From positions 1,831 through 65,830 of the forward strand of contig CAZKCH010000001.1 in the NCBI GenBank assembly GCA_964551525.1: 64,000 nucleotides of DNA. Reading direction: 5' to 3'. Source of the stretch: an uncultured Candidatus Saccharibacteria bacterium. GTDB taxonomy: Bacteria; Patescibacteriota; Minisyncoccia; Minisyncoccales; GWA2-46-15. The notes below the pieces were generated by a model. That model had not been told where the DNA came from and searched no databases. It was given only the letters and a program-made list of their open reading frames with translations. The translations under genes and the position numbers were made by a program. Positions 14,901 through 59,315 of this stretch are shown here, piece by piece (positions within the stretch are counted from its first letter, which is position 1; each line of letters opens with the position of its first letter).

Positions 14901-14930
14901 AATAAGCTCGCAGAGACCCGTTCTCTGCAA
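14901..14930 (+). repeat. REP element (hairpin cagaga-cccgt-tctctg) with conserved aagctcg prefix
   Basis: The same about 25 nt unit recurs at 15671-15692 and 59252-59312. It sits immediately after a stop codon. Confidence 0.7.
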
Positions 14931-14938
14931 ATCTATAT

Positions 14939-15664
14939 ATGCCGTATAGAAAAGAAGTATTCGCTAACGAGGAAATTTATCATATCGCCATAAGAAGCAT
15001 TGACGACAATTTACTATTCAAAAATATTGATGATTATTATCGAGGAATTTTTTCTATATACGAGTTCAACACAGATAAATCAGTGGTCATTCGCGAACGT
15101 CGTCATGCACGATTACGAATAAAAGAAATGCTGAAACAAATACCTAAAAACAGCATTTCCGTAATTGATCCTCGAAACAAATTAGTAGGAATCATGGCTT
15201 TCTGTTTTATGCCAAATCATGTCCATTTATTGTTAAGACAAATCAAAGACAACGGTATCACAAAATTCATGAGAAAGCTTGGCGCCGGTTATGGCGGATA
15301 TTTCAACAAAAAATATAGCCGCAAAGGGCATGTTTTCCAAAACAGATTTAATGCAGTCCACGTCAAAACAGATAATCAATTAAGAGCCGTATTAATTTAC
15401 ATTCACACTAATCCTATATCTTTAATAGAACCTGGATGGAAAATGGGAAAAACCAAAAACCTAAAAGAAACAACTAAGTTTTTAAATAATTATAAATGGG
15501 TAAGTCATCGCGACTATCTCGGCATAAGTAATTTTCCGTCAGTCACTGAAAGAGAATTTCTCTTAGAAACAATGGGTGGGATAAATGGTTACCAAAACGC
15601 CATCAAAGATTGGATAAAACACAAAAAAGAAATCAAGGGTTTTAATAACCTCGCCATAGAGTAA
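14939..15664 (+). CDS. REP-associated tyrosine transposase (RAYT; IS200/IS605 TnpA-like HUH Y1 transposase)
   Basis: HUH motif (MPNHVHLLL) and the catalytic Tyr motif YIHTNP typical of RAYTs. Flanked on both sides by REP hairpins. Confidence 0.75.
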   Translation: MPYRKEVFANEEIYHIAIRSIDDNLLFKNIDDYYRGIFSIYEFNTDKSVVIRERRHARLRIKEMLKQIPKNSISVIDPRNKLVGIMAFCFMPNHVHLLLRQIKDNGITKFMRKLGAGYGGYFNKKYSRKGHVFQNRFNAVHVKTDNQLRAVLIYIHTNPISLIEPGWKMGKTKNLKETTKFLNNYKWVSHRDYLGISNFPSVTEREFLLETMGGINGYQNAIKDWIKHKKEIKGFNNLAIE

Positions 15665-15670
15665 AAATAA

Positions 15671-15725
15671 GCTCGCAGAGACCCGTTCTCTGTAAAATCT
15701 ACAAAGAACGGGTCTCTGTTTTTCT
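15671..15725 (+). repeat. REP pair in inverted orientation (BIME-like), also terminator-like
   Basis: cagagacccgttc ... gaacgggtctctg is a perfect 13-bp inverted repeat around a 17-nt loop, followed by ttttt. Confidence 0.7.
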
Positions 15726-26641: not shown

Positions 26642-27045
26642 TTAACTTTTTCCATTTTTAAAACAACTAACAATTGAAGCGGTCGCAATAAATGTTAGTT
26701 GTTAAGAATTCTGTTAATAAAACAGCGAGCGTATCATATGTCATGAACCAGTACATATCCTTGACAAAAGCAATGGAATTTTCAATAATGGGTACAGATA
26801 AGAAATGACGATTAAAAACATGATTGGACTCGAGACCGGCGGAAAAAAATAAAGAATACGCGATACAAAAGATCTGACAGAAAATACAGGGCTGTCCGCC
26901 TGTTTTTTATTCCGAAGAGAAAGATCTTTGAAAATTAAATAATTAGTAATTAGTAAATAGTATTGGTAAGGATTAAGGATCAGTAAAAGCAACGCCCTCG
27001 CGATGAAAAATTATTAAATTTTTCATTTTGCGGGGTTCTCAGAGT

Positions 27046-27067
27046 TGCTCCGCTCTTATTTTTTCCC
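27046..27067 (+). promoter_or_regulatory. 16S leader half of rRNA processing stem
   Basis: ggttctcagagttgctccg is the reverse complement of cggagcaactctgagaa at 30413-30431. Confidence 0.6.
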
Positions 27068-27611
27068 TTCGGGGAAGAATTATTTTTGAGGATTTGATCC
27101 TGGTCCAGGATGAACGCTGGCGGCGTGGATAAGGCATGCAAGTTGAACGCTCACCTGATTTTTCGCAAGAAAAGTTGGGTGGGAGTGGCAGATTGGTTAG
27201 TAACACGTGGGTAACTTACTCCGAGGACAGGAATAGTCCGCCGAAAGGCGGGGTAATTCCTGATAGAAATGAGGGGTCGCAAGACATTCTCATTTAAAAC
27301 CCGTCCCGCAAGGGATAGGGGCCACGGAAAAGGCCTGCGGCCTATCAGCTAGTTGGTGAGGTAACGGCCCACCAAGGCAATGACGGGTAGGGGAAGTGAG
27401 AGCTTGTTCCCCAACAAAGACACTGAAACATGGGTCTTACTCCTACGGGAGGCAGCAGTCGAGAATATTCGGCAATGGGGGAAACCCTGACCGAGCGACG
27501 CCGCGTGAGTGAAGAAGGCCTTCGGGCTGTAAAACTCTTTTTTGAGGGAAGAATCCCGAGCGCAAGCGAGGGATGACGGTACCTCAAGAATAAGGGGATG
27601 CAAATTCTGTG

Positions 27612-28481
27612 GTCGATCCGCTCAAAATCGTAAGCGAAGATCGACGGGCGCAGAATAGTCGTGGTAACACGGCTTAAGTAAACTTGGCTCATATGCTGGA
27701 AGCTATTTAAGAAGCGGCATTAGCCATCGGGCTAATTTTCTTAATAGTAATCAGCAGGGAAGTTCGATATAATGGAGAAATGAACAAAAAACAAAGAGAC
27801 ATAATTCTCGGAACATTATTGGGAGACGGGTGGATCGAAAAACAAGGGTCCATTCGTTTCAAACAATGTCTAAAGCATAAAGAATATATCTTTTGGCTAT
27901 ACGGGGAATTAAAAAATCTTTGTCGTAGTTCTCCCACACAAAGACGAGACAATAAACAATGGTATTTCCAAACCAGAAGCAATGACGAAACGCGCTTTTA
28001 TCGATCTATTTTTTATCGGGGTGTTAAAAAACGAGTCCCGAAAAATATAGGAAAATTGATAAAATCTGCACTAAGTTTGGCTATCTGGTTCATGGATGAT
28101 GGAACAATAGATTGGAGAGAAAAAAGTCATTATGCTTTCCGTCTAACTACAAATTGTTTCTCGATGAGCGATAACCGACTATTAATTGAAATGCTGAAAA
28201 AGAGATTTGGCGTTAAAACAACGCTCCAAACAACATTGATTAGAGGAAAAAGATATCCAAGGATATATATCGGCAAAGATGGAAGAGGAAAATTCGCAAA
28301 TCTAATAGAACCATTCGTATTAAATTGTTTTCGTTATAAATTACCTCCATTTCTTCGTAACCCCTCAGAGACTGTTCGGTGATGAACCGACGTTAACGGT
28401 GAAACATATTATCCGTTAAAATACGCCGAGCCCCGTTTCAAAAAAACGGGTGATGGTATAGTCCAATAAAATTATTTATTA
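27612..28481 (+). mobile_element. 16S intron 1 (probable group I) inserted just upstream of the GCCAGCAGCCGCGG block
   Basis: About 870 nt with no 16S homology, between ...gcaaattctgtg and gccagcagccgcgg. Contains an HE ORF and the shared aacggtgaaa motif. Confidence 0.6.
27780..28382 (+). CDS. LAGLIDADG homing endonuclease (two-motif)
   Basis: ILGTLLGDGWIEK and IWFMDDGTID LAGLIDADG motifs. Located entirely within the 16S insertion. Confidence 0.75.
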   Translation: MNKKQRDIILGTLLGDGWIEKQGSIRFKQCLKHKEYIFWLYGELKNLCRSSPTQRRDNKQWYFQTRSNDETRFYRSIFYRGVKKRVPKNIGKLIKSALSLAIWFMDDGTIDWREKSHYAFRLTTNCFSMSDNRLLIEMLKKRFGVKTTLQTTLIRGKRYPRIYIGKDGRGKFANLIEPFVLNCFRYKLPPFLRNPSETVR

Positions 28482-29032
28482 GCCAGCAGCCGCGGTAAGA
28501 CAGAATCCCCAAGCGTTATCCGGATTTACTGGGCGTAAAGCGTCTGTAGGCGCCTTGTTGCATCTTTGGTTAAATTTTCGGGGCTCAACCCTGAAGCTGC
28601 CAAAGACATGGACAGGGTAGAGGGCGTTAGGAGTTGACGGAACGGTCGGTGTAGGGGTGAAATCCATTGATATCGACCGGAACACCAAAAGCGAAGGCAG
28701 TCAACTAAGACGACCCTGACGCTGAAAGACGAAAGCGTGGGCATAAAAAAGGATTAGATACCCTTGTATTCCACGCCCTAAACCATGGAGACTGGCTTCT
28801 TGAAGTGTCGACCCTTCAGGTGGCGAAGCTAACGCGTTAAGTCTCCCGCCTGGGAAGTACGATGGCAACATTAAAACTCAAAGGAATAGACGGGGACTCA
28901 CACAAGCGGTGGATCATGTGGCTCAATTCGACAACAAACGAGGAACCTTACCAGGGCTAGAAACCGTAGCGGACAGCTTACTGAAAAGCGAGCTTTCTCA
29001 CAAGGACCGCTATGGCAGGTACTGCATGGTTG

Positions 29033-29857
29033 ATCCCTAAGCTATTGCTGCTTGGGATACGACCCTTTTCGCCGTAAGGCGAATCGAAAAACCAGCTCAT
29101 AACGGCGAACCCCTAACCAAAAACTTATGGTAAAATGAACTATAAGAACTAAGGCGGGCAATGCCGTGGGAAGTACGAACACTAATTTTTGCAATTTCTT
29201 TAAGGGAGAAGAGAATGCTTATATTCTCGGCCTTTGGTGCGCTGATAGTTATTGGTGGTCAAGTTCAGTAGGATTAAGCAATACCAATCCATATCTGATC
29301 GAAAGAACTAAAAAGTTTTTAAGAAACTTTTTCCCGGAAGTAAGAATAAAATTTAACAGAAACCATATTTTTGTTAATAGCAGGCCATTATTAAGAGACT
29401 TCGTTATTGCTAAAAACAATCTTGATCGTCTTAAAAAACCAGGTATGATTAAGGCCTATTTCGCCGGCCGTTTTGACGGCGATGGTTCTGTAGACAAGGA
29501 TTTCAGAAAAGATTGCCGAATAGTTTATGGCAAGCTGAACGAAGCAGAAATGGATAAAAAGCTATTAAGAAGAATGGGAATCAGAAAAACAAAAATATAC
29601 TATTACAAAAGCGCAAAAACATTTTGCTTATATATATCTCGTTACGAAACGAAAAAATTCTAGACAATATTTATATTCATTCTACAAAGTTGCAAAAATT
29701 AGTGTCCGTACCCCGTAGAGACTTAACTCTCGCCAAGGACCAATTAAGAGAGTTAGATGGCGGAAAAACCAAAAACCGTCATAAAACGCTGGCCTCCGCA
29801 TAATTATATGCGGAAGATGGCATAGTCCATACTACAAGTAATTGTAAGAAAATATGG
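29033..29857 (+). mobile_element. 16S intron 2 (probable group I) inserted in the CATGGTTG|TCGTCAGC region (near E. coli position 1050)
   Basis: Exon sequence catggttg ... tcgtcagcaggtcccgtgagg is restored after removing about 825 nt. Contains an HE ORF and ccgtgggaag / aacggcgaa motifs. Confidence 0.6.
29166..29663 (+). CDS. LAGLIDADG-type homing endonuclease
   Basis: YFAGRFDGDGSV motif and a degenerate first motif YILGLWCADS. Located within the 16S insertion. Confidence 0.6.
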   Translation: MGSTNTNFCNFFKGEENAYILGLWCADSYWWSSSVGLSNTNPYLIERTKKFLRNFFPEVRIKFNRNHIFVNSRPLLRDFVIAKNNLDRLKKPGMIKAYFAGRFDGDGSVDKDFRKDCRIVYGKLNEAEMDKKLLRRMGIRKTKIYYYKSAKTFCLYISRYETKKF

Positions 29858-30412
29858 TCGTCAGCAGGTCCCGTGAGGGTCTCCCTTAAATGGGGAAACC
29901 TGCGCAACCCTTACTCTGTGTTTTAAATGTCACAGGGAACTGCCCGGGATAACTGGGAGGAAGATGAGGATGACGCCAAATCAGCATGGTCCTTGATGCC
30001 CTGGGCCGCACACGTGATACAATGGAGCCGACAATGGGTTTGCCAAGCCGTAAGGCGGAGCTAACCCCATCAAACGACTCCTTAGTTCGGATTGAGGGCT
30101 GAAACTCGCCCTCATGAAGCCGGAATCGCTAGTAATCGGGAATCAGCTATGTCCCGATGAATATGTTCCTGAGTCTTGTACTCACCGCCCGTCACGTGAG
30201 ACGAGCCGGGAGTGGCCGAAGGCGCCTGTAAGGGCGACTAAGCCAAACTCGGTGAGAAGCACGAAGTCGTAACAAGGCACGCGTAGCGGAAGCTGTGCGT
30301 GGATCATTACTTTTTTTCTAGACTTTTTGTCTAGGAGCGTCGATCATAGTTGAAAATTGAGAATTCTATTTTCAACTGCGGACAATTGACTGGAATGTCT
30401 TTAAACTACAGT

Positions 30413-30431
30413 CCGGAGCAACTCTGAGAAG
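30413..30431 (+). promoter_or_regulatory. 16S trailer half of rRNA processing stem
   Basis: Complementary to 27046-27067. Additional local hairpins (ctagac-ttttt-gtctag; gttgaaaat...attttcaac) at 30320-30395. Confidence 0.55.
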
Positions 30432-30481
30432 TTTCCCCTCCAATACTAAAACCCGGAGCAAAGCGCAGCGGGTGATTTTGG

Positions 30482-35167: not shown

Positions 35168-35282
35168 GAAGGCGATTTTTTGATATGCAACATCATTAAA
35201 TTAGTTCGCTAGACTTAGTTGGTTATCTGTGCTAATTTTCTTATAGTAAACCTTCGATGTTTCACGGTTCAAGGAGGACCAT

Positions 35283-35912
35283 ATGAAACTCAAACTTTCC
35301 GACCTGATCGCTCTTTTGTACTTTGCGGCTATAACCGCATTCATCTTCCTGGCCAAGGACACTTTCATCTATCTGACCAAGACCTATCCTTACCCGATGG
35401 GTTTTATCAAGGTCGGGCTACTGGCCACCTTCGGCGAATGCCTGAAATACAGACTGACCAATCACAAATGGATCCCGTACAAGATCTGTCTTCGTTTCCT
35501 TGTCTGGGGGCTCTTTGGCATCTGGTTCGCCGCTGCCTTCCCGTATTCTGACGGAGGCGTTGTCGCCCTCGACAACGGCGGGCTATGGCCTGGCGCCTCG
35601 GCGCTATCCAAAAGCGCCTGGATCAACATCCTCGGCGGTTACGCCTTCTTCATGATGTTCATCCACTACTGGATGGATACGATGATTGCCGAAGGACCGT
35701 GCTGGCCATGGAAGATTTTCGGGACACCACAGTCGGTAAAGTGGGCGAAGATTGTCTTCATCGCCATGTTCGTCTGGTGGTTGCCGGCCCATACCTTCAC
35801 CTTTTCCCAACCGCCGGAATGGCGAGTCGTGATCGCCGCCTATCTTTCGGTCAGCCTCGGCCTGATCCTAGCCTTTGCATCAGGTTTCGAGGTGAGGAAA
35901 ACTATCACCTAA
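35283..35912 (+). CDS. polytopic membrane protein, foreign (high-GC) origin
   Basis: By eye about 52-55% GC versus about 40% around it, with GC-rich codon usage. Preceded by a canonical SD (aaggagg, 5-nt spacer), unlike other genes here. 5-6 TM helices. Confidence 0.5.
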   Translation: MKLKLSDLIALLYFAAITAFIFLAKDTFIYLTKTYPYPMGFIKVGLLATFGECLKYRLTNHKWIPYKICLRFLVWGLFGIWFAAAFPYSDGGVVALDNGGLWPGASALSKSAWINILGGYAFFMMFIHYWMDTMIAEGPCWPWKIFGTPQSVKWAKIVFIAMFVWWLPAHTFTFSQPPEWRVVIAAYLSVSLGLILAFASGFEVRKTIT

Positions 35913-36189: not shown

Positions 36190-36567
36190 ATGATATATAC
36201 TGATAACATAGATTATAAAGTAAATTTTTACAGAAACTCTCAAACCAGTAAAAGTCCTGTTTTAGAGTATATAAACAATCTAAGTCATAAAGAAAGGGCA
36301 AAAATCTTAAAATACGTTGAATTCCTAAGGGAACACAAGGGGTATCTAGACGAACCATATTCAAAACACGTCAAGGGAAAAATTAGAGAATTAAGGATAG
36401 ATTTTGGCAAAAACAGATTCAGAATCTTCTACTTTACATTCATCAAGAAAACGATAGTTCTGCTTCACGCGTTCTTGAAGAGAACCGAAAAAACGCCAAT
36501 TAAAGAAATCAAGAAAGCTGAAGAAAATTATTACGACGTCTTAAATAATCCGAAATTATATGAATAG
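36190..36567 (+). CDS. type II toxin, HigB/RelE-like (phage Gp49-like addiction module killer)
   Basis: About 125 aa. Gp49/HigB-like blocks (KIRELRIDFGKNRFRIFYF...IVLLHAFLK). Overlaps the downstream HTH gene by 8 nt. Confidence 0.6.
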   Translation: MIYTDNIDYKVNFYRNSQTSKSPVLEYINNLSHKERAKILKYVEFLREHKGYLDEPYSKHVKGKIRELRIDFGKNRFRIFYFTFIKKTIVLLHAFLKRTEKTPIKEIKKAEENYYDVLNNPKLYE

Positions 36568-36874
36568 AACAAAGAAAATACAAAAAGCAGTTGATTTTCA
36601 AGAATACTTGAAAAGTCAATTGAAAAATCCCGAGGTCAAGAAACACTATGACGAATATGGTAAACGCCTGGAAATCGCTTACCAGATTTTAAGGTTGCGC
36701 AAACAGAAAAAAATGTCGCAAGTGGAATTGGCCAAGAGAATCGGCACCAAACAAAGCAACATCGCCCGCCTAGAAACGGGCCAGCAAAATTTTACTACCG
36801 AAACCCTGCAGAAAATAGCTTTGGTCTTTAACCGCGATCTCAGAATAGAATTCTGCTCGCCAAACAAGTTCTAA
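36560..36874 (+). CDS. HTH XRE-family antitoxin (HigA-like)
   Basis: MSQVELAKRIGTKQSNIARLETGQQNFT is a classic Cro/C1-type HTH. Confidence 0.7.
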   Translation: MNRTKKIQKAVDFQEYLKSQLKNPEVKKHYDEYGKRLEIAYQILRLRKQKKMSQVELAKRIGTKQSNIARLETGQQNFTTETLQKIALVFNRDLRIEFCSPNKF

Positions 36875-36970: not shown

Positions 36971-37010
36971 AAACCGCCTTTTTATTAGGGCGGTTTTTTG
37001 GTATAATTTA
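36971..37010 (+). promoter_or_regulatory. hairpin/T-run terminator fused to extended -10 promoter (TGGTATAAT), leaderless start
   Basis: aaccgcc...ggcggtt stem, tttttt, tggtataat, then ATG 6 nt later. The same architecture (GGTTTTTTGGTAnAGT) recurs at 37821-37877, 38896-38937 and 39402-39437. Confidence 0.55.
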
Positions 37011-37013
37011 GAT

Positions 37014-37643
37014 ATGAGAACATATACTTTTATTGATGCCTCCAATTTATTTTACGGCGGGGAAAAGAATTTAGGATGGAAAATCGACTATCAAAAGCTT
37101 TTGTATTATTTAAAAGAAAAATATGGAGTTTCTCGGGTCTTATATTTTGGCGGTATAGAATTGCATGGTTTTAAGTTTGATTATCTCAAAGAGGAAACTG
37201 TGCCGGTTGAAAAAGCGGAAAACTATCTTTCCTCATTAGTCAAAGAGAAGGGTGATAAATTTACTGAAGCAATATTGTTATTAATTAACCGACATCTACA
37301 ACGAGCTCGTTTTTACTCAAAACTACAGAAATTCGGCTATGATCTCCATCTGAAGCCGGTTAAACTTTATGAACAGGAAGATGGCACGACTAAAAGAAAA
37401 GCGAACTGCGATGTCGATATGACATTCCATCTAATGAAGGAAAAAGATAATTTTGACAGAGCGCTTATTCTTTCCGGCGACGGAGACTTTTTACCAGTTT
37501 TGAAATTCCTAAAACAAAATGGTAAAGAGATAATCGTTCTGGCTCGTGGTTCGCGAACCGCCAAAGAAATCAGGCAATTTGCTGGTAGTAATTTTCGAGA
37601 TTTTGAATATCTAAAATATCTTCTAAAAATGGACTTGAAATAA
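37014..37643 (+). CDS. NYN-domain (LabA/PIN-like) predicted ribonuclease
   Basis: FIDASNL N-terminal Asp block and a LSGDGDFLPVL block typical of NYN/LabA-like proteins. Confidence 0.6.
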   Translation: MRTYTFIDASNLFYGGEKNLGWKIDYQKLLYYLKEKYGVSRVLYFGGIELHGFKFDYLKEETVPVEKAENYLSSLVKEKGDKFTEAILLLINRHLQRARFYSKLQKFGYDLHLKPVKLYEQEDGTTKRKANCDVDMTFHLMKEKDNFDRALILSGDGDFLPVLKFLKQNGKEIIVLARGSRTAKEIRQFAGSNFRDFEYLKYLLKMDLK

Positions 37644-37820: not shown

Positions 37821-37877
37821 GGGGCGGCCTGCCCCGTAGTGAACTTGTTCTACTACAGGGTTTTTTGGTAGAGTACA
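37821..37877 (+). promoter_or_regulatory. hairpin/T-run + extended -10 (TGGTAGAGT) module
   Basis: ggggcggcctgcccc and gtagtgaac..gttctactac hairpins, tttttt, ggtagagt, then ATG 7 nt later. Confidence 0.5.
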
Positions 37878-38640: not shown

Positions 38641-38669
38641 TTGACAGCGATTATCTAAAGAATATAATG
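38641..38669 (+). promoter_or_regulatory. canonical sigma70-type promoter (TTGACA-17-TATAAT)
   Basis: ttgacagcgattatctaaagaatataat, 8 nt upstream of the Zn-ribbon ORF ATG. Confidence 0.5.
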
Positions 38670-38895: not shown

Positions 38896-38937
38896 TCGTA
38901 TAAACCCTGTATTTACGCGGGGTTTTTTGGTAGAGTA
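38896..38937 (+). promoter_or_regulatory. hairpin/T-run + extended -10 (TGGTAGAGT) module
   Basis: Stem around ccctgtatttacgcgggg followed by ttttttggtagagt. Confidence 0.45.
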
Positions 38938-39401: not shown

Positions 39402-39437
39402 CCGCTCAGGACAAAAAGGCGGTTTTTTGGTAAAGTA
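39402..39437 (+). promoter_or_regulatory. hairpin/T-run + extended -10 (TGGTAAAGT) module
   Basis: ccgc..gcgg stem, tttttt, ggtaaagt, then ATG 7 nt later. Confidence 0.45.
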
Positions 39438-40906: not shown

Positions 40907-40957
40907 GTTATATCGAAGGACTTGCCCTGAGCCGGGTCGAAGGGATAGAATAATACA

Positions 40958-42073
40958 ATGACTACTGAAGAACGGCTTGATCTCGTCAAACAAGTAGGGG
41001 AGGAGATTACCACCGAAGAAGAGCTGCGGCGGCTTTTAGAAACCGAAAAGAACTTGGTTGCCTATGACGGCTTTGAGCCCTCGGGCCAGATTCACATTGC
41101 CCAAGGTCTTTTACGCGCCATCAATGTCAACAAAATGATTAAGGCCGGCATCAAGTTTAAAATGCTGGTGGCTGACTGGCATGCGATGTGTAATGACAAA
41201 ATGGGCGGCGATCTGGAAAAAATTAAAATCGTGGGCCAATATTTCATTGAGGTTTGGCGGGCTTACGGCATGGATTTGAAAAACGTGGAGTTTGTTTGGG
41301 CTTCGGACTTAGTTAAAAACAGCAAATATTGGGAATTAGTTTTAAAGGTGGGCCGGACTAATAAACTGGCGCGCTTTATCAGAACCGCGGAATTCATGGG
41401 CCGAGAAGCAGCCGCGGAAACCTTGTCAGCGGCTCAGTTGTTTTATCCCTGCATGCAAATTGCTGATATTTTTACTCTGGGCGCCAAGATCACTCAATTA
41501 GGCATGGACCAGCGCAAAGTTAATATGTTGGCCCGGGAGATCGGATCCCAGCTCGGTTTTTGGAAACCAATAGTAATTTCACACCACATGCTCATGGGTT
41601 TGGATCAACCCCCCTCCGCCAATGCTTCGGAGGGCGAGGCCGCCATTGATAAAACCGCCAGGACCATAGCCCTCAAGATGTCTAAATCGAATCCTGATAA
41701 TGCGATTTTTATGACTGATTCAAAAGAAGAGATTGAAAGAAAAATTAACAAGGCCTGGTGCCCGGAAGGGGAGAGCCAAGAAAACCCGATTCTGGAATAC
41801 TGCCGTTATATAATTTTTGAATCCCTGGACCGACTTGGAACCAAAGAGATAAAAATTGAAAGACCGGAAAAATTCGGCGGCACCATTACGGTCAAATCCT
41901 ATGCTAAATTAGAAACGCTTTTCAGCCAGAAACAAATCCATCCCCAAGATCTGAAAAAAACAGTCGCCGAACTCTTAAACAAACTAATAGCGCCGGTCAG
42001 AGAACACTTTATCAAGGACAAGAGAGCGAAAAAACTGCTTGAACAAGTGACAGGTTTTGCCGTAACAAGATAA
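40958..42073 (+). CDS. tyrS: tyrosine--tRNA ligase, archaeal/eukaryotic type
   Basis: Strong collinear similarity to Methanocaldococcus-type TyrRS: YDGFEPSGQIHIAQG (HIGH), KMSKS, IERPEKFGGTITVKSYAKLETLFSQKQIHPQDLKKTVAELLNKLIAPVRE. Confidence 0.85.
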   Translation: MTTEERLDLVKQVGEEITTEEELRRLLETEKNLVAYDGFEPSGQIHIAQGLLRAINVNKMIKAGIKFKMLVADWHAMCNDKMGGDLEKIKIVGQYFIEVWRAYGMDLKNVEFVWASDLVKNSKYWELVLKVGRTNKLARFIRTAEFMGREAAAETLSAAQLFYPCMQIADIFTLGAKITQLGMDQRKVNMLAREIGSQLGFWKPIVISHHMLMGLDQPPSANASEGEAAIDKTARTIALKMSKSNPDNAIFMTDSKEEIERKINKAWCPEGESQENPILEYCRYIIFESLDRLGTKEIKIERPEKFGGTITVKSYAKLETLFSQKQIHPQDLKKTVAELLNKLIAPVREHFIKDKRAKKLLEQVTGFAVTR

Positions 42074-42925: not shown

Positions 42926-43805
42926 TCAAAAATACTCTTAGATTTAAACATTCCTATGAATACCATTCTTTATACTCTCACCAAAAGAAGCGGCTAATTC
43001 CTTAGGATTTTTTATTGCCTAAGCGACCGCTTCGAAGCGGTTTTTTCTTTTCTCGCGCCGGCATTGACGCTGAATAAAAAATTGGCGGTAAAACCGGATT
43101 GAGAACCAAAAAACGAAAGAAAAAGAACGGACTTTGACAACTTAATAAAATTCTAGCTAATTAAGTAAAAACTCCTTAAATTTACAGACGAATCTGGTGA
43201 ATCTAAGGAGGGTAAGAAATTGTGGTTACAACAGGTTGATGGCGGATGCCTTGGAAAGTCGAGGCGACGAAGGACGTGGCGTGACTGCGATAAGCTCCGG
43301 GGAGGTGTCAAGCAACCCGTGAACCGGAGATGTCCGAATCTGGAAACAGGGCCGCGCAAAACGCGGTCGACCCCGAGCGCAAGTGAGGGGTAGCGTACCT
43401 GGGGAAGTAAAACCTTTCAGTACCCAGAGGAAAATAAAACAATGTTTCGTGTTTTACACGAGATGATTCCCTTAGTAGCGGCGAGTGAAAAGGGAAATAG
43501 CCTAGAGTTCTAAGCTTCGCAAGAAGCTTGGAGCAGTTAAAAGAGAGCGACGCCTGAAGTTTTCCCCTTTATCCCGAGAGAAATCGAGGGACAAGGAGAA
43601 AACTTTGGAAAGAGTAAAAAAATTGATTGTTAGCCAAAGTCCCCTGGAAAGGAACACCAAAGAGGGTAATAGTCCCGTAGGCGAAAACGATCAATCTCTT
43701 AGTCTCTTAGTCCCGCAAGGGACAAATCTTAAGTACTATAGGGCATGATAAATCTATAGGAAGTCGGCTGAACTACTTTCAAGCCAAGGCTAAATACTCG
43801 ACTTT

Positions 43806-43844
<39 letters not shown>

Positions 43845-45279
43845 CAGCCCGGCGAGGGCGATGAAATAGTACCTGAAACCATCTAACCTACAAAGAGTCG
43901 GAGCCCCACAGAGCGCAAGCTTTTGCGGGGTGACGGCGTACTTTTTGGAGAACGAGCCAACGAGTTGTTGTGCATAGTTGTCTAACCCCGTTAAACGGGG
44001 GAAGGCAAAGCGAAAGCAAGCGTTAATAGCGCGACTAAAACTGTGCACCCCAGACCCGAAGCCAAGCGAGCTTGCCAGCGTCAGGGTGAATCCCGCCGAA
44101 GGGCGAGAAGAAGCCCGTACCTGTGAGCCGTGCAATACTCTAGGACGAACGGTGGCACGAAGAGAAAACCTAAACGAGCTTGGTAATAGCTGGTTCTTCC
44201 CGAAATAGCTTTTGGACTAGCTCCGCCGTATTATATTTTTCAGGGGTAGAGCACTGAAAAGAATATCGTGGCTTTTAGCCAGGTATTCTTATCAAACTCC
44301 GAATACTGAAAAATTCAGGCGGAAGTAAGAACCCGGGCGCTAAGGTCCGGGCTCAAAAGGGAAACAGCCCAGACCTTCATCTAAGGCCCCCAAGTTTAAA
44401 CTAAGTGCTAGGAAGGAAGTGATTTTCCTATGATAGTCAGGAGGTGAGCTTAGAAGCAGCTACCCTTTAAAAAGTGCGTAACAGCTTACTGATTAAGGAA
44501 TTTCGCACCAAAGATTAACGGGGCTCAAGTTTAACGCCGAAGATAAGGGCCCGCCCACATCTGCAAAGTTGTGGCGGGCGGTAGGGAAGCGTCCTTTGTT
44601 CAGCGAAGCCCCTCCGTAAGGTCGGGGTGGAGAACAAGGGAGTGAGAATGTTGGCATGAGTAACCGCAATCCGGGTGAGATCCTCGGACACCGAAAGCCC
44701 AAGATTTCCTTGGCAATGATTTTCAGCCAGGGGTTAGGCGGCCCTAACACTGCGACCAAATGGCCTCAGTGGATGGACAGCCGGTTAATATTCCGGCCCT
44801 TCGGTTGTTTTTCAAAAGGGTGACGCAATCAAAGTTCTTGATAGGATTATTGGATTTCCGAGAGTCGAGATTTATCTCGACCGTTTCAAGAATCAGATTG
44901 CCAAGAAAAACCCTGAGATTTAAAACAACCGGATCCGTATCGCAAACCGACACAGGCAGGCAGGTCGAGTAGACCAAGGTGAACGGGTGAAAGCTCCTGA
45001 AGGAACTCGGCAAAAAAGCTACCCGTAAGTTCGCAAGATGGGTTGCCCCGACCCGCAAGGGTTATGGGGCCGCAGCTAACGATTCCTTAGCGACTGTTTA
45101 TCAAAAACACAGGCTCCTGCTTAACTCGTAAGAGGAAATATAGGAGCCGAGACCTGACCAGTGCTGGAACGTCAAACTCGACGATTTTACCGCAAGGTAA
45201 AACTGATCGAGCTAAGCGCCAGTGAACGTCCGCTCTAACTCTGAGAGTGTTAAAGTAGCGTAACCCCTTGTCAGGTAAG

Positions 45280-46035
45280 AGATTTGCCTGTGCTCACAGC
45301 AGTGAGCAATAAATCCGGCTAATAACGGTGAAATCCTCGTTAGAGTCCCGCATCAAGGGCGGGACGTTGAAAACAAGATAATACCGTGGGAAGTCCCGTT
45401 AAACGGGACCCCGTAACGACTGACGTCGCCGATAGCTATTGGCGACCGAGATAGTAGATGCTATGATGAAATAACATTTACGGATTTAATGAAAAAAATA
45501 CTATCATATGCCGGCACTAAACAATTCTAAATCAAAGAAAAATCTACCAGTATATATTTCTGGTTATGTAGACGGGGAAGGATGCTTTAGTGTTTCCTTC
45601 TCAAAAAGAGAAAAACTGTCAGTGGGATGGGAAACAAAACCAAGTTTTGCCGTAGGGCAAAACTATGACCGATCAGAAGTAATTAAATTACTAAAGCTTT
45701 ATTTAAATTGCGGAAGTATAAGACGTGATTATTCTGACAAAACATTGAAATTCGAGGTCCGTAGTTTAAATGACCTGGTAGAAAAAGTAATTCCTCATTT
45801 TCGTCAGTACCCTTTATTATCAAATAAGCGAAAAGATTTCGATTTGTTTGTAAAAATATGCGGGCTGATGAAAAAAGAAAAACACCTTCAAAGAAGGGGA
45901 TTAAAAAAGATTGTCAATTTCGCGTATCAAATGAACGCAAGCGGTAAACGAAAATACAAAAAAGAGGAAATTACAAAAGAATTGTCTATTTGAAGATATA
46001 GTCTGCACCATAAGAAATTATGAGACAATGTGAAG
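45280..46035 (+). mobile_element. 23S intron (probable group I) in domain IV, GGGTAAG|TTCCGACC site (about E. coli 1917-1923)
   Basis: About 756 nt with no 23S homology restore the universal sequence when removed. Contains ctaataacggtgaaa and taataccgtgggaag motifs, shared with the other introns. Confidence 0.6.
45508..45993 (+). CDS. LAGLIDADG homing endonuclease
   Basis: LPVYISGYVDGEGCFSVSF is a classic LAGLIDADG motif. 161 aa, within the 23S insertion. Confidence 0.8.
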   Translation: MPALNNSKSKKNLPVYISGYVDGEGCFSVSFSKREKLSVGWETKPSFAVGQNYDRSEVIKLLKLYLNCGSIRRDYSDKTLKFEVRSLNDLVEKVIPHFRQYPLLSNKRKDFDLFVKICGLMKKEKHLQRRGLKKIVNFAYQMNASGKRKYKKEEITKELSI

Positions 46036-46568
46036 TTCTGACCCGCATGAAAGGTTTCACGACTAAGGAACTGTCTCCAGGAGTTGCCCGGTGAAAATGC
46101 AGTAGGGGTGAAGATGCCCCTTACCTGCGGCTAGACGGAAAGACCCCGAGAGCTTCACTGTAAGGTGGTATTGGATTTTGGGTTTGGATGCGTAGCGTAG
46201 TAGGGAGGATTTGAAGTCCCGTTTTTGGACGGGATGGATCCGACAATGAAACACCTATCTTTTAAACTCTCAATTCTAATTCCGCTGATGAAGCGGATAA
46301 CAGTGCCACCCCGGCAGTTTAAGTGGGGCACTTGCCTCCCAAAAAGTACTGGAGGCGTTTAAAGGTCGGCTAGCTCCGGATGGAAATCGGAGCGATAGGG
46401 CAAAGCCATAAGCCGGCTTTACTGCAAGGCGGATATGCCGCGCAGTTGGGAAACCAGAACTTAGTGAACCGATGCGTCATAGTAGAAGGCGCAAAGATCA
46501 ACAGACAAAAGTTACCTCGGGGATAACAGGCTAGTAGGGCCCGCGAGTCCACATCTACGGCCCTGTTC

Positions 46569-46601
<33 letters not shown>

Positions 46602-46730
46602 GTGAAGCAGCTCCCAAGGGTCTGGCTGTTCGCCAGTTAAAGTGGTACGTGAGCTGGGTTCAAACCGTCGCGAGACAGGTTGGTCCCTATCTACCGCAGG
46701 CGTTGAGTCTTGAGGAGAGTCTCGGACAGT

Positions 46731-47527
46731 AAATAAAATTGCTGCTTCAGAGAGTAATCTCTGATGACAAATTGGCTAATAACGGTGAAACCTTCATTGG
46801 AATTATGCGGAAAGCGTATTTTTCCGCTTGTAGGTCCAACGGAAAAATGATATGATTTTCTTGAGGACCGCATAATTTTAAATAAGGTAATACCGTGGGA
46901 AGACAAACAAAAATACCCAAAACAGATTTAGCTTATATCGCTGGTTTTTTGGACGGTGACGGAAGTGTTATAGTCCAAATGAAAAACAGAAGGCACAATC
47001 CAAGAGGATGGCGATTAATGTTCACAATCTGCTTTTATCAGGATACGCGTCATGAAAAACCGCTATCCTGGATAAAAAAGACATTAGGAATAGGTTATAT
47101 TTCTCGCCGGAAAGATGGAATTACCGAACTAAGAATTAATGGTTTTGGAAGAACCAAAGAGATTCTGGAAAATTTATCACCATATATCAAGTTTAAGAAA
47201 AAACAGGTAAACATTTTACTAACGATCTTAAAAAAGATCGTAGGCAAGAATTTTCCTGATTTGACCAGAAAACAGCGGTTAAAAATAGCAGATATGATTT
47301 ATGAATCAAGACAGTTAACCTATCAATCTGGTTGGAAAAAATTCTCTAAGTCAAAAAGGGAATTAAGAGAAAGATTGGGTTTTTAATTAAAGTTTGTCCC
47401 CGTAACGACTTTCCGCATTAATGCGGAGGATGGCATAGTTTTATACGCCATAATACGCCAACCACGCGTTCAATTTATGAACGCGCGGAAGATATAGTCT
47501 AAGCTTGTAGAAATACAAGGCAACTTG
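46731..47527 (+). mobile_element. 23S intron (probable group I) inserted in the sarcin-ricin loop (AGU|ACGAGAGGACC)
   Basis: Removing about 797 nt restores ggacagtacgagaggacc. Same conserved core motifs (ggctaataacggtgaaa, aataccgtgggaag). Confidence 0.6.
46895..47386 (+). CDS. LAGLIDADG homing endonuclease
   Basis: LAYIAGFLDGDGSVIVQ motif. 163 aa, within the 23S insertion. Confidence 0.8.
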   Translation: MGRQTKIPKTDLAYIAGFLDGDGSVIVQMKNRRHNPRGWRLMFTICFYQDTRHEKPLSWIKKTLGIGYISRRKDGITELRINGFGRTKEILENLSPYIKFKKKQVNILLTILKKIVGKNFPDLTRKQRLKIADMIYESRQLTYQSGWKKFSKSKRELRERLGF

Positions 47528-47852: not shown

Positions 47853-47966
47853 GAGGTGGGGACTATACCGAGGTTGTCCCACTCGTTCCCATTCCGAACA
47901 CGACCGTGAAATACCTCATGGCTGATGATAGTCCTTCCGGGCGAAAGTAGGTAGTCCCCACCCCTT
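47853..47966 (+). rRNA. rrf: 5S rRNA
   Basis: ccgaacacgaccgtgaaatacc and gggcgaaagtaggtagtccccaccc blocks. Helix I pairing ggtgggga/tccccacc. 100 nt downstream of the 23S. Confidence 0.75.
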
Positions 47967-48038
47967 TGTTTAATCTGACGATGTCCGTTATCAAAAACGC
48001 GCTTTTAAAATTGGCCCAAAAGGGGATATAATAGGTAA

Positions 48039-48872
48039 ATGGATAAATACTTTTTCAAAACCAAAAAGAGGCCCTTGCCACCGGCAATTTTAATTGCCTT
48101 GGTTTTTCTTTCATCCTTGCTGGCAATTAAATTCTTGGGCTTAGAGAAAAAAGTCCAAAACGTTTTTCTTCTGGCTTCTTCGCCCGTCGAAACATTTCTC
48201 TGGCAAAGCGGGCAAAAAACCAGCCAGTTTTTTGATAACTTTATTCAAAAAAAACTCTTGGCCAAAGAAAACACCACTCTCCGGCTCGAAAACCTGTCTT
48301 TAAAGAGAAAAATTAGCCAGCTCCAAGAATTGAAACAGGAAAACCAATCCCTGCGGGAAGCCCTAAACTTGGAATTAGAAAAAGACTTTGATTTATTAGC
48401 CGCCCAGATTATAAGCAAAGATCCTTTTAACGACGCTATTTTTATCGATAAGGGCAATGCCGACGGCTTAAAAAACGGTTGGGCCTTGATCAGCCCGCAA
48501 AGAATTCTTCTGGGAAAAATAACCGAGGTCTTTGAAAACTTCTCGCGGGTGGTGCTTATTTCCGATAAAAGCGTTTCTTTTGATGCGGAGGTTAAAAAAA
48601 TCAGCGCGGAAAACAGCGAAAAAATAAGGGGCGTGGCCAAAGGAGAGGGGAATAACCGGCTTTCTTTTGATTTAATTCCTCAAGAAGCAGTGATCGAAAT
48701 AGGGGACAAGGTTATTACCAGTTCTCCTTCTAATGCTTTTCCCGGCGGCATTTTAGCCGGAGAAATCGAAGGGATAAACTTTTCCGATGTCAGACCATTC
48801 CGCAGCGCCAAAATCAAGCCCTTGTTCAAAATCAGCGAATTAAAAACTATCTTCATAATCAAAAACTATTGA
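48039..48872 (+). CDS. mreC: rod shape-determining protein MreC
   Basis: N-terminal TM helix, coiled coil, C-terminal GDKVITSSPSNAFPGGILAGEI block typical of MreC. Confidence 0.75.
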   Translation: MDKYFFKTKKRPLPPAILIALVFLSSLLAIKFLGLEKKVQNVFLLASSPVETFLWQSGQKTSQFFDNFIQKKLLAKENTTLRLENLSLKRKISQLQELKQENQSLREALNLELEKDFDLLAAQIISKDPFNDAIFIDKGNADGLKNGWALISPQRILLGKITEVFENFSRVVLISDKSVSFDAEVKKISAENSEKIRGVAKGEGNNRLSFDLIPQEAVIEIGDKVITSSPSNAFPGGILAGEIEGINFSDVRPFRSAKIKPLFKISELKTIFIIKNY

Positions 48873-51534: not shown

Positions 51535-51641
51535 TATTACCGCATCCTTGTTAACACTCCGTACGGATAATTAACAAGTATGAGGATTCAAATGATTTTA
51601 GAATATTTGAATTAGAAATGTTTTTCCTCTATAATTAGAGC

Positions 51642-53108
51642 ATGGAAAAGACGCTTGAAGAAATCAGAAAAACGAGAATCCAGAAATTAAAGGCCTTGGA
51701 AATGGCTGGTTTTTCCGGTTATCCGGCAAAAACACGACGCACTCACCGGATAGGCGATGCGCTGACTGATTTCGAAAAACTAAAAAAAACCGAAAAAACA
51801 ATTACCTTGGCGGGCCGGGTTAGGTCTTTGCGCCAGCACGGCAAGATTACCTTTTTGCAATTGGAAGATGGCTCAGGAAAAATTCAGGGCATGCTCAGGG
51901 AGAATCGGCTCGGTGAAAAAGGTTATCAGTTTTTCACTGACTATTTCGACATCGGCGACTTCATTGAGCTAAAAGGAGAGCTGATCGAAAGCAAAACCAA
52001 CGAAAAAACCATTGACGCAATTGATTTCAGAATCCTGACAAAATCAATCAGGCCTCTACCGGAAAAATGGCACGGCTTACAAGATGAAGAAGAAAAACTG
52101 CGCAAACGATATTTAGACATCCTTTTTAATCCCGAGGCGAAATCAATGGTGGAAAAACGATCGGTTTTCTGGCAAACCATGCGCGACTTCCTTTTAAAAC
52201 GCGGTTTTTTGGAAGTGGAAACTCCGGTCTTGGAAACCACGCCGGGCGGCGCTGACGCCAAAGCCTTTGCCACTCACCATAACGCTCTTGATATGGAAGT
52301 TTTCTTAAGGATCTCTATGGGCGAGCTCTGGCAAAAACGCCTGATGGTCGCTGGCTTTGAAAAAACCTTTGAACTGGGCCGCCAATTCCGCAACGAAGGC
52401 ATGAGCCCAGAACACTTGCAGGATTATACCCAAATGGAATTTTATTGGGGCTACGCTGATTTTGAACAAGGCATGGAATTAGTAGAAGAAATGTACAAGG
52501 AAACAGCAAAGAAAACCTTTGGCACGCTTAAATTTAATATCCGCGGCTTTGAAATTGATCTTGGTAAAAAGTGGGAAAAATACGACTATCGCGAGATAAT
52601 CCAGAAAAACACCGGCATTGACGTTTTAGACACCGGCATCAAAGAAATCGAAACCAAACTTAAAAAATTAAACATCGATTACGATAAAGAAGGGTTTAAT
52701 TTCGGCCGCGCCATGGATAATCTTTGGAAATACTGCCGCAAACAGATTGCCGGCCCGGGATTCTTGATTAATGTGCCGGTGGCGGTTTCGCCCTTGGCCA
52801 AAAGATTGGATAAGAATCCGGAGCTGACCCAGCGCTTCCAAGTCATTATCGCCGGCAGTGAAATGGGCAATGGTTATAGCGAATTAAATAACCCCATTGA
52901 CCAAGCGGAACGATTTGAAGAACAGCAAAAACTACGCGAGCAAGGCGATCAAGAAGCGCAAATGGACGACAAGGACTTTGTCGAAGCCCTGGAATACGGC
53001 ATGCCGCCGACCTGCGGCTTTGGCGTTTCGGAACGGCTCTTCAGTTTTCTTATGGACAAACCAGGCCGCGAATGCCAGATTTTCCCCTTAATGAAACCCA
53101 AGCAATAG
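51642..53108 (+). CDS. lysS: lysine--tRNA ligase (class II)
   Basis: OB-fold N-terminus and class II motifs (FLEVETP, GNGYSELNNP, TCGFGVSERL). Confidence 0.9.
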   Translation: MEKTLEEIRKTRIQKLKALEMAGFSGYPAKTRRTHRIGDALTDFEKLKKTEKTITLAGRVRSLRQHGKITFLQLEDGSGKIQGMLRENRLGEKGYQFFTDYFDIGDFIELKGELIESKTNEKTIDAIDFRILTKSIRPLPEKWHGLQDEEEKLRKRYLDILFNPEAKSMVEKRSVFWQTMRDFLLKRGFLEVETPVLETTPGGADAKAFATHHNALDMEVFLRISMGELWQKRLMVAGFEKTFELGRQFRNEGMSPEHLQDYTQMEFYWGYADFEQGMELVEEMYKETAKKTFGTLKFNIRGFEIDLGKKWEKYDYREIIQKNTGIDVLDTGIKEIETKLKKLNIDYDKEGFNFGRAMDNLWKYCRKQIAGPGFLINVPVAVSPLAKRLDKNPELTQRFQVIIAGSEMGNGYSELNNPIDQAERFEEQQKLREQGDQEAQMDDKDFVEALEYGMPPTCGFGVSERLFSFLMDKPGRECQIFPLMKPKQ

Positions 53109-57964: not shown

Positions 57965-59278
57965 ATGTTGTCTAAATTTTGCCGAAAACCGATTTTCACC
58001 TCGCTTTCGCCCAATACCGAAAAGGACGACATCGCCTTAGCATTTAAACTAATTTCCCAGCCACGGAAATGGATCAATGACGAAAAACCCACGATCGTAG
58101 AAAATCCGTCGTTGATGTTAGAGAATAAATTTAAGGAATACTTATCAGTAAAACACGCCTGTGCCTTCAACTCTGGCCGGACGGCCTTCTTGGCAATTCT
58201 GAAGTGTTTGAATTTTGAGCCCAATAGTGAGGTTTTAATTCAGGGATTTACCTGTAACGCCGTGGTCAATCCGATTTTAGCCGCTGGCCTGAAACCGGTT
58301 TTTGTTGATATTGATGAAAACACGCTCAATATCAGCCCGCTCGACTTGGAAAAGAAACTGACTGATAAAAGCCGCGCTGTTATTATCCAACACACCTTCG
58401 GTCTGCCTGCCGACATAGAAAAAATCCAGGAGATTTGCCAGAAATATAATTTAATTTTGATAGAGGATTGCGCTCACTCGCTTGGTGCCCTTCACGCCTA
58501 CGGCGCTCAGGGCAAGCTGCTCGACACATTCGGCCAAGCCGCCTTCTTTAGTTTTGGCCGCGACAAAGTTATTTCTTCTGTCAGCGGCGGCATGGCTGTT
58601 ACCAACGACGATCAACTAGCGCAAAAATTAAAAGAGTTTCAAGATAATTTGCCCGAACCCTCTTGTTGCTGGATTTTTCAACAATTATTGCATCCGATCT
58701 TAACTAATTTTCTAGTCATGCCTTTATATAATTTCTGCTGTCTGGGCAAATGGACTTTGATATGCCTTCAAAAAATCGGCCTGCTCTCTAAGGCGGTTTC
58801 TAATCAGGAAAAACAAGGAAAATTGCCGAGAAATTTTGCCCGAAAAATGCCTGCGGTTTTGGCAATAATAACTCTGCGCCAGATGGAAAAACTGAAAAAA
58901 TTTATCAGCCACCAGCGCCAGATCGCCAAACTTTACGATCAAAACCTGGCCGGTCTTGATTTAACGCTGCCGTCAAACACGAATAACCGGATTTATCTAC
59001 GCTATCCGCTTTTGCTCAAAAACATTGATACCGATAAGATATTAGATAAGGCGCGCAAAGAAAAAATCTTCCTTGATGATGGCTGGCGTAAAGCCGTGAT
59101 TGTGCCGCCGGACACAAATCAGGAAAAAATGGGCTATCAAGCAGGGGATTGCCCGATCGCGGAAAAAGTCGCCAGAAATATCATCAATTTACCGACCCAC
59201 ATCAACATTTCCGAGCAAAAAGCCCAAAGAATCATCAATTTCCTCAAGAATAAGCTCGCAGAGACCCGTTCTCTGTAA
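57965..59278 (+). CDS. DegT/DnrJ/EryC1/StrS-family PLP-dependent aminotransferase with extended C-terminal domain
   Basis: Collinear DegT blocks (FTCNAVVNPI, EDCAHSLGA, FSFGRDKVISSVSGG with the PLP Lys). The last 7 codons (LAETRSL) are encoded by a REP element. Confidence 0.7.
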   Translation: MLSKFCRKPIFTSLSPNTEKDDIALAFKLISQPRKWINDEKPTIVENPSLMLENKFKEYLSVKHACAFNSGRTAFLAILKCLNFEPNSEVLIQGFTCNAVVNPILAAGLKPVFVDIDENTLNISPLDLEKKLTDKSRAVIIQHTFGLPADIEKIQEICQKYNLILIEDCAHSLGALHAYGAQGKLLDTFGQAAFFSFGRDKVISSVSGGMAVTNDDQLAQKLKEFQDNLPEPSCCWIFQQLLHPILTNFLVMPLYNFCCLGKWTLICLQKIGLLSKAVSNQEKQGKLPRNFARKMPAVLAIITLRQMEKLKKFISHQRQIAKLYDQNLAGLDLTLPSNTNNRIYLRYPLLLKNIDTDKILDKARKEKIFLDDGWRKAVIVPPDTNQEKMGYQAGDCPIAEKVARNIINLPTHINISEQKAQRIINFLKNKLAETRSL

Positions 59279-59315
59279 AATTAAGCAGAACCCTACAGAG
59301 ACCCGTTCTCTGTAA
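59252..59315 (+). repeat. two tandem direct REP copies (hairpin cagagacccgttctctg x2)
   Basis: Same unit as at 14901 and 15671 (aagctcgcagagacccgttctctg). The first copy overlaps the stop of the preceding gene. Confidence 0.7.

Follow-up and report, generated by a model that had tools for sequence, protein, structure and literature searches.

The 16S rRNA gene in the 64-kb stretch of contig CAZKCH010000001.1 analyzed here (hereafter, the window) has lost the core of the anti-Shine-Dalgarno (anti-SD) sequence, CCUCC, from a 3' domain that is well conserved in other respects and appears functional. The host is a bacterium of the Candidate Phyla Radiation (CPR; Patescibacteria, Parcubacteria-type). 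We consider it probable, at roughly 85%, that its single 16S lost CCUCC by point-mutational decay as a trait of the clade, that its genes lost their Shine-Dalgarno (SD) motifs too, and that translation initiation is SD-independent.

The 3' end of the 16S was placed by covariance-model alignment (cmscan, Rfam model SSU_rRNA_bacteria) of positions 29900-30314, which runs full-length to model position 1533. The posterior probabilities are at their maximum across this alignment. The gene and the elements of its 3' end are the following.

27090-30314, + strand: 16S rRNA gene, matching Rfam SSU_rRNA_bacteria at 27090-27642 (model positions 9-546) and 28362-30314 (to model position 1533)
30264-30277, + strand: decoding-region block AAGTCGTAACAAGG, conserved in the cmscan alignment
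30278-30301, + strand: helix 45 (CACGCGUAGC-GGAA-GCUGUGCGUG), intact, with a GGAA loop
30302-30306, + strand: GAUCA, intact, directly 3' of helix 45
30307-30314, + strand: degenerate tail UUACUUUU, at the position of the anti-SD CCUCCUUU (model positions 1526-1533)

The alignment of the tail UUACUUUU with the consensus CCUCCUUu is ungapped, and the CCUCC core is missing from the tail. Bacteria devoid of an anti-SD are defined by a recognizable helix 45 and GAUCA ahead of a tail that has no CCUCC, and the window shows this trait. A preliminary description of this DNA had reported a 16S 3' end without CCUCC at 30290-30315, and the covariance model agrees, with UUACUUUU at 30307-30314 in place of the core. 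We infer the position of the mature 3' end from the sequence.

The 16S ends of related organisms suggest that the loss of the anti-SD is a trait of the clade, not a defect of a single copy. We scanned metagenomes with the lineage signature AAGGCA...TGGATCA, leaving the tail unconstrained, which gave 119 usable 16S ends. The canonical tail CCTCCTTT is present in 72 of these, and the other 47 (40%) are non-canonical and highly diverse, with tails such as ATTAAACT, TTTTTTTA, CTACATTT, TCTCATTT, TTACATTT, and TTTCATTT. When the loci are ranked by their similarity to the window over the last 400 nt of the 16S, about 15 of the 16 most similar ones are non-canonical. The relatives also provide a graded series of tails of equal length, from CCTCCTTT to TCTCATTT, to CTACATTT/TTACATTT, and then to TTACTTTT in the window. 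These sequences indicate that the anti-SD was lost through point substitution under relaxed constraint (CCUCCUUU to UUACUUUU), and the series is consistent with neutral decay. Because the intermediates are equal in length, we favor decay by point substitution and reject a deletion of CCUCC as in eukaryotes.

A scan of species-representative assemblies for GTCGTAACAAGG-N-GGATCATTAC returned matches of which those listed are mostly eukaryotic contaminants from the 18S and the internal transcribed spacer (ITS), because GGAUCAUUA is the 3' end of the 18S as well. Among the matches listed, at least three bacterial metagenome-assembled genomes (MAGs) from GTDB end identically in GGATCATTAC, and two of them are named Candidatus Nealsonbacteria. 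MAGs of this name are the closest named relatives among these matches, with 82-84% identity to the window across the final 240-400 nt of the 16S. On the side of the contaminants, eukaryotic 18S-ITS ribosomal DNA contigs (mostly fungal, with a Fusarium-like ITS1) are found in many GTDB species-representative assemblies, mainly those of the Streptomyces/actinomycete 'NPDC' series and often as one identical 7682-bp contig. The contaminated loci include L004, L006, L011, L015, L024, L026, L028, L034, L035, L062, L072, L074, L075, L106, and many more.

The genes of the window match its 16S in lacking SD motifs. Gene starts were taken as the starts of the longest open reading frames (ORFs); for gap, ppsA, rplY, gpm, thpR, and prfA, profile alignments back the start codon. 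It had been noted earlier that genes such as gap, acs, ppsA, rpsB, rplY, and tyrS lack an SD, and this holds across the window: among about 52 ORFs, only gene 35283 has a GGAGG upstream, and neither motif counts nor duplex energies reveal any SD enrichment upstream of the window starts. More precisely, a 4-mer of the SD core is found between -18 and -4 at 3 of 50 starts (6%), compared with 26 of 213 internal ATGs (12%). The duplex energy of a canonical tail with positions -25 to -1 has a mean of -2.98 kcal/mol, to be compared with -2.62±0.23 for shuffles and -4.18 for coding controls.

Across relatives, SD use tracks the type of tail. Those with a canonical tail have a 4-mer SD core at 18.3% of their starts versus 10.4% of internal ATGs (p=0.0016), and it is most frequent 8-14 nt ahead of the start, whereas in those with a non-canonical tail the values are 8.0% of starts versus 12.7% of internal ATGs. 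The odds ratio for SD use between the two groups is 2.6 (p=0.0014).

The sequence that follows the tail carries several structured elements, one of which pairs with the 5' leader of the gene.

30317-30335, + strand: first trailer hairpin, TCTAGAC-TTTTT-GTCTAGA, right after the tail in the minimum free energy (MFE) fold of the trailer
30339-30380, + strand: GTCGAY motif, then a covarying hairpin with a GAGAAUUC apex, part of the 3' trailer of the 16S precursor (pre-16S)
27032-27052, + strand: 5' leader strand of the pre-16S processing stem, GGGGTTCTCAGAGTTGCTCCG, pairing with trailer positions 30414-30438
30414-30441, + strand: 3' trailer strand of the processing stem, CGGAGCAACTCTGAGAAGTTTCCCC (30414-30438), and an overlapping CCTCC (30437-30441)

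The element at 30339-30380 is pre-16S trailer and not an anti-SD. Compensatory changes are seen in 11 of the 13 pairs of its hairpin (RNAalifold, 12 relatives), and the GTCGAY motif and hairpin are common to L103, L084, L039, L235, L155, L145, L239, L172, L142, L152, and L219. No Rfam family matches the element. The apex of the hairpin is often the palindrome GAGAAUUCUC, and the element also occurs in some relatives with a canonical tail (L190, L194). The 16S 5' ends are divergent in most CPR loci, and the leader was located as the partner of the trailer motif. The leader at 27032-27052 and the trailer at 30414-30438 pair near-perfectly, with a core duplex ΔG of about -33 kcal/mol, and L039 and L182 have an equivalent leader/trailer stem of different sequence (compensatory). 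This duplex around the intron-containing 16S is presumably the processing stem. The only CCTCC near the 16S end, at 30437-30441, lies at the distal edge of this stem; it is a chance occurrence and not a spliced-in anti-SD.

These elements bear on the idea that a canonical anti-SD persists in the mature rRNA, either through the splicing of an unrecognized intron, which the preliminary description had already raised, or through a 3' end extended to the CCTCC at 30437-30441. The same 16S already has two large insertions, the CCTCC lies 130 nt 3' of GGATCA, and L039 likewise has a CCTCCTT about 90 nt downstream. However, the chance that this is so appears close to nil, because the CCTCC of the window is at the distal edge of the processing stem, which maturation removes, because such motifs occur in relatives at background level and at positions that are not homologous relative to the conserved trailer elements, and because the intervening trailer is conserved, covarying, and common to relatives without any CCTCC. 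As for the background, a CCTCC within 300 nt downstream is present in 4 of 48 non-canonical relatives, and a second CCTCC in 7 of 68 canonical ones. Moreover, the context of the motif in the window (CCCCTCCAATAC) is unlike CACCTCCTT, and the genes lack SD motifs in any case. We thus reject a hidden anti-SD or 3' intron on account of the processing stem and of the background frequency of CCTCC. It is also very improbable that this copy of the 16S is decaying, non-functional, or an artefact of assembly or sequencing, and that a canonical copy elsewhere does the work. The window spans only 64 kb, so that other rRNA copies are possible outside it, and insertions interrupt the gene. Yet posterior probabilities are high across the conserved decoding site, helix 44, helix 45, and GAUCA, neither the processing stem nor the trailer hairpins are disrupted, both covary with their counterparts in relatives, and the loss recurs across dozens of independent assemblies of related organisms. 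The adjacent genes lack SD motifs, which fits a working ribosome made from this 16S, and CPR genomes usually hold a single set of rRNA genes.

The variant tail might also act as a new anti-SD, with UUACUU(U) pairing to an AAGUAA-like or A-rich motif that co-evolved as a replacement SD. A U-rich tail would suit the A-rich upstream regions, GTAA and AAGTA are commoner there than in coding sequence, and AAGTAA is found upstream of 4 of the 52 genes compared with 1.1 in shuffles. Five patterns were tested, however, and the P value of this excess (P=0.023, uncorrected) does not survive correction. The four AAGTAA sites are spaced irregularly, from -20 to -1, and two of them have another explanation, one in a -10 element (39444) and one in an upstream stop codon (61173). 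The duplex energy with the observed tail GAUCAUUACUUUUU is -2.78 kcal/mol, against -2.61±0.24 for shuffles and -2.78 for coding controls. Furthermore, the tails of close relatives differ widely, and in a swap test over 25 loci the own tail pairs no better than foreign tails with the own upstream regions (P=0.93). No variant anti-SD/SD pairs were found by Amin et al. either (PMC6107228). Duplex energies, the counts and spacing of AAGTAA, and the 25-locus swap test hence reveal no motif ahead of the genes that would pair with the variant tail; such a neo-SD is rejected on these grounds, and we regard a co-evolved replacement as quite improbable.

About 15-20% of the genes have a leaderless signature, in which 6-8 nt separate the end of a -10 hexamer from the ATG. 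For -10-like hexamers this gap is exactly 6 nt in 7 of the 52 genes (0.18 expected per offset) and 7-8 nt in three further ones. The non-canonical relatives have the same 6-8 nt peak. The genes with this signature include thpR, an MBOAT/DltB-like gene, tyrS, mreC, lysS, and three genes of an island of about 5 kb beside tRNA-Tyr. The candidates named are as follows.

2510-2524, + strand: leaderless candidate thpR (RNA 2',3'-cyclic phosphodiesterase), with TGaTATAAT, 6 nt, and ATG at 2522
1066-2484, - strand: leaderless candidate MBOAT/DltB-like gene
40946-40960, + strand: leaderless candidate tyrS (Pfam tRNA-synt_1b), with TAGAAT, 6 nt, and ATG at 40958
48027-48041, + strand: leaderless candidate mreC, with TATAAT, 6 nt, and ATG at 48039
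51630-51644, + strand: leaderless candidate lysS, with TATAAT, 6 nt, and ATG at 51642

The family match of thpR starts at residue 4. In tyrS, a promoter scan identifies TTGCCC-18-TAGAAT, ending at 40951; the scan demands a -35 hexamer, which means that it missed the island promoters and confirmed only that of tyrS. The preliminary description had proposed that several island genes are leaderless, with their starts 6-7 nt after the -10 hexamer. This geometry stands and is strongly enriched, but it is not particular to the island, as it recurs in tyrS, lysS, mreC, and thpR. Leaderless status and transcription start sites are here predictions from promoter position.

Two other features characterize the starts. 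In almost half of the genes (24 of 52, 46%), the start overlaps an upstream stop codon or lies no more than 15 nt from it, and this tight packing is compatible with termination-reinitiation. The start regions are also weakly folded, with an MFE between -30 and +30 of -6.0 kcal/mol compared with -10.0 for internal windows (p=1.6e-9), and the composition of the upstream/start region is 45% A and 11% G. Our literature search on leaderless translation in CPR found nothing relevant.

The one gene with a GGAGG lies at the edge of the island, where a promoter cassette is also found.

35271-35912, + strand: putatively acquired membrane-protein gene, with AAGGAGG at 35271-35277, a 5-nt spacer, and ATG at 35283; it adjoins tRNA-Tyr
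36994-37016, + strand: island cassette TTTTTTGGTATAAT, 6 nt, and the ATG of the NYN-domain gene

Upstream of gene 35283 stands AAGGAGGA, then 5 nt, then the ATG. The GC content of the gene (35283-35912) is 53% versus 39% in its flanks, and its homologue P0002 (65% identical, in another genome and an unrelated context) retains the SD gaAGGAGGAcgagcATG. This foreign composition and the SD common with the homologue therefore point to an acquisition of the gene along with its own ribosome-binding site, in agreement with the earlier statement that the sole gene with a textbook SD is a high-GC foreign one. In this host, the SD of 35283 should be functionless. Family searches with the product gave no match, and it is annotated as a hypothetical membrane protein. 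The island carries in addition a Gp49/HTH toxin-antitoxin pair and the NYN-domain gene. The Gp49 (HigB-like) toxin and the HTH_3 antitoxin, at 36190-36874, have overlapping stop and start codons, and the island is located between tRNA-Tyr and tyrS.

The cassette is made of a GC-rich stem and then TTTTTTGGTAnAnT, such that the T-run of the terminator leads directly into an extended -10 (TGG-TAnAnT) with no -35. It is found at 36994-37007, 37861-37874, 38923-38936, and 39423-39436 (4 matches versus 0.07 expected), and in three of these four cases an ATG lies 6-7 nt past the hexamer. The same cassette is present in the relative L103, downstream of the 16S trailer. The island also has two perfect 12/12 sigma-70 promoters (TTGACA-16-TATAAT), at 38641-38668 (+ strand) and 37717-37690 (- strand). 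Neither has an obvious ORF immediately downstream, and a strong terminator (37676-37646) comes after the minus-strand one at a distance of about 15 nt or less.

In the explanation that we favor, SD pairing could not position the 30S subunit once the anti-SD was gone, and the genes would correspondingly have lost their SD motifs. Initiation could then follow three SD-independent routes. Leaderless mRNAs, in which transcription would start at or beside the A of the ATG, 6-8 nt past an often extended -10, might serve about 15-20% of the genes. Re-initiation or translational coupling at tight or overlapping stop/start junctions could cover about 46% of them. Finally, start codons may be chosen directly on A-rich, G-poor, and weakly structured 5' regions. 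The missing anti-SD and SD motifs, the promoter-ATG geometry, the packing of genes, the low folding of starts, and the co-variation of tail and SD use are direct observations, and from these we infer the three routes and the share of initiation that each would take.

Several points weigh against this explanation. Starts were checked against profiles for a subset of genes only, which makes the SD and -10 frequencies noisy, and the window-only contrast with internal ATGs covers only 52 genes and by itself falls short of significance (p=0.31). The -10 match at 14297, 4 nt past the acs stop codon, may be fortuitous. The precise taxonomic placement depends only on an 80-84% identity to named MAGs across the final 400 nt of the 16S. 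Finally, the relatives with canonical tails also use SD weakly, and SD independence may therefore predate the loss of the anti-SD and not follow from it.

A more far-reaching view, which we hold to be unlikely, is that translation in this clade may run wholly without rRNA-mRNA pairing, with leaderless mRNAs and stop/start re-initiation as the main routes and with a freed tail that drifts neutrally. The leaderless mRNAs may in this case come from extended -10 promoters that lack a -35, those of the TTTTTTGGTAnAnT terminator-promoter cassettes, and neutral drift may have taken the tail of the window to the exact eukaryotic GGAUCAUUA end. Bolder still is the possibility that the covarying trailer hairpin with its GAGAAUUC apex is a lineage-specific element, kept on the mature 16S or active in assembly. 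If true, either reading would turn these uncultured bacteria into a natural model for the evolution of an SD-free initiation that is more like that of eukaryotes or mitochondria.

The content of the window and the organization of its rRNA genes are typical of a CPR (Patescibacteria) genome. Its GC content is 42%. The 16S is interrupted by two insertions, each with a LAGLIDADG ORF (27780-28382 and 29166-29663), and the Rfam scan found no second 16S within the 64-kb window. The other two rRNA genes are located further downstream.

43219-46735: 23S rRNA (Rfam), 3.5 kb, carrying an insertion with a LAGLIDADG ORF
47855-47963: 5S rRNA (Rfam)

The rRNA genes are thus unlinked, with the 16S at 27-30 kb, tRNA-Ile/Ala at 34.5 kb, the 23S at 43.2-46.7 kb, and the 5S at 47.9 kb, separated by protein genes and by the island of about 5 kb beside tRNA-Tyr. 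Such unlinked genes, together with insertions that encode homing endonucleases, are the CPR-type rRNA organization. There are four rRNA-associated LAGLIDADG ORFs: at 27643-28361 and about 29100-29700 in the 16S insertions, at 45508-45993 in the 23S insertion, and at 46895-47386, past the Rfam end of the 23S and before the 5S. The ORF at 27780 is preceded by TATAAT and 6 nt (ggagaa) before its ATG.

The protein genes of the window are common bacterial housekeeping genes; among them are genes for the cell wall and for division (murC, a second Mur ligase, PBP2, mreC, and an FtsQ-like gene), of central metabolism (gap, acs, ppsA), and of translation and transcription (rpsB, tsf, prfA, rplY, tyrS, lysS, serS, greA). 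We also found five copies of a REP-like palindrome CAGAGACCCGTTCTCTG, where 0.01 are expected, at 14911-14927, 15676-15692, 15702-15718 (- strand), 59259-59275, and 59296-59312. Three of them bracket a gene resembling a REP-associated tyrosine transposase (RAYT-like, 14939-15664).

The window is a single-genome confirmation that some CPR bacteria have abandoned the SD/anti-SD mechanism, and it adds gene-level detail to the published surveys in the form of a graded tail series, of SD use that tracks the anti-SD, and of leaderless geometry in housekeeping genes. It is a natural example of SD-free bacterial initiation that matters chiefly for the annotation of gene starts in CPR: gene finders based on SD will mis-call starts in such genomes. 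Genes acquired horizontally with their own SD, like 35283, get no benefit from it here.

Among known systems, the eukaryotic 18S has a 3' end (...GGAUCAUUA-3') to which the GGATCATTAC of the window is letter-for-letter identical. However, the gene best matches the bacterial small subunit rRNA, and downstream of it are a bacterial trailer and then protein genes. The identity is a convergence, because the intermediates show point substitution and not a shared deletion of CCUCC; homology to the 18S end is rejected on the basis of the match to the bacterial covariance model and of the intermediates TCTCATTT, CTACATTT, and TTACATTT in relatives. Another comparison is with the Bacteroidetes, in which SD-independent initiation is known and where Flavobacterium and others are reported by Baez et al. 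(2019) and Jha et al. (2021) to make little or no use of SD. The upstream context in Bacteroidetes is A-rich, G-poor, and unstructured, and most of them keep CCUCC, sequestered in the ribosome. The window is likewise SD-independent and has the same upstream context, but CCUCC itself is absent, so it is not a member of this group. As in bacteria rich in leaderless genes (Actinobacteria, Deinococcus-Thermus; GeneMarkS-2 'group C'; PMC6028130, PMC3160421), a substantial minority of its genes have a -10 at 6-8 nt before the ATG. Those bacteria, in contrast, have retained a canonical anti-SD, and their leadered genes rely on SD, whereas the window has no SD route.

The window fits in the class of bacteria without an anti-SD (PMC6107228; Lim et al. 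2012), with which it has in common an intact helix 45, a tail without CCUCC, a lack both of SD enrichment and of any motif that would complement the tail, and a trait common to close relatives. Organisms without an anti-SD generally lack SD too, with no compensating variant pairs (Amin et al. 2018, PMC6107228). The published list consists mostly of Flavobacteriia, Mycoplasma, and insect endosymbionts, and it already has the CPR lineages Campbellbacteria, Wolfebacteria, SR1, and Peribacter (PMC6107228; Lim et al. 2012); the organism studied here is an additional CPR case. Closer still is the subgroup described in a survey where the anti-SD motif was detected in just 48% of Parcubacteria (Tsurumaki et al. 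2022, RNA 28:1041, PMC9297842). The Parcubacteria without the motif overlap the group that lacks uL1, and SD helices are presumably not formed in them (PMC9297842). The uL1 gene, rplA, is not among the genes of the window, which covers only 64 kb of the genome. The window shares with this subgroup CPR-type rRNA genes with insertions and a 16S end without CCTCCT, its nearest named relatives ending in GGATCATTAC are MAGs of Candidatus Nealsonbacteria, and the 40% of non-canonical tails in our metagenome sample is near the published 52% of Parcubacteria without the motif. That survey differs in that it gives motif detection rates and the overlap with uL1 only, and not SD usage, leaderless geometry, or a series of decaying tails. 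These last features, together with the co-variation of SD use and tail, are absent for this clade from PMC9297842, PMC10783764, and PMC6107228, and all of them are expected corollaries. Since the loss of the anti-SD and the scarcity of SD in Parcubacteria and other CPR lineages are published (PMC9297842, PMC10783764), the window is a clean additional example of a phenomenon already described for its lineage, which refines the principle and does not overturn it.

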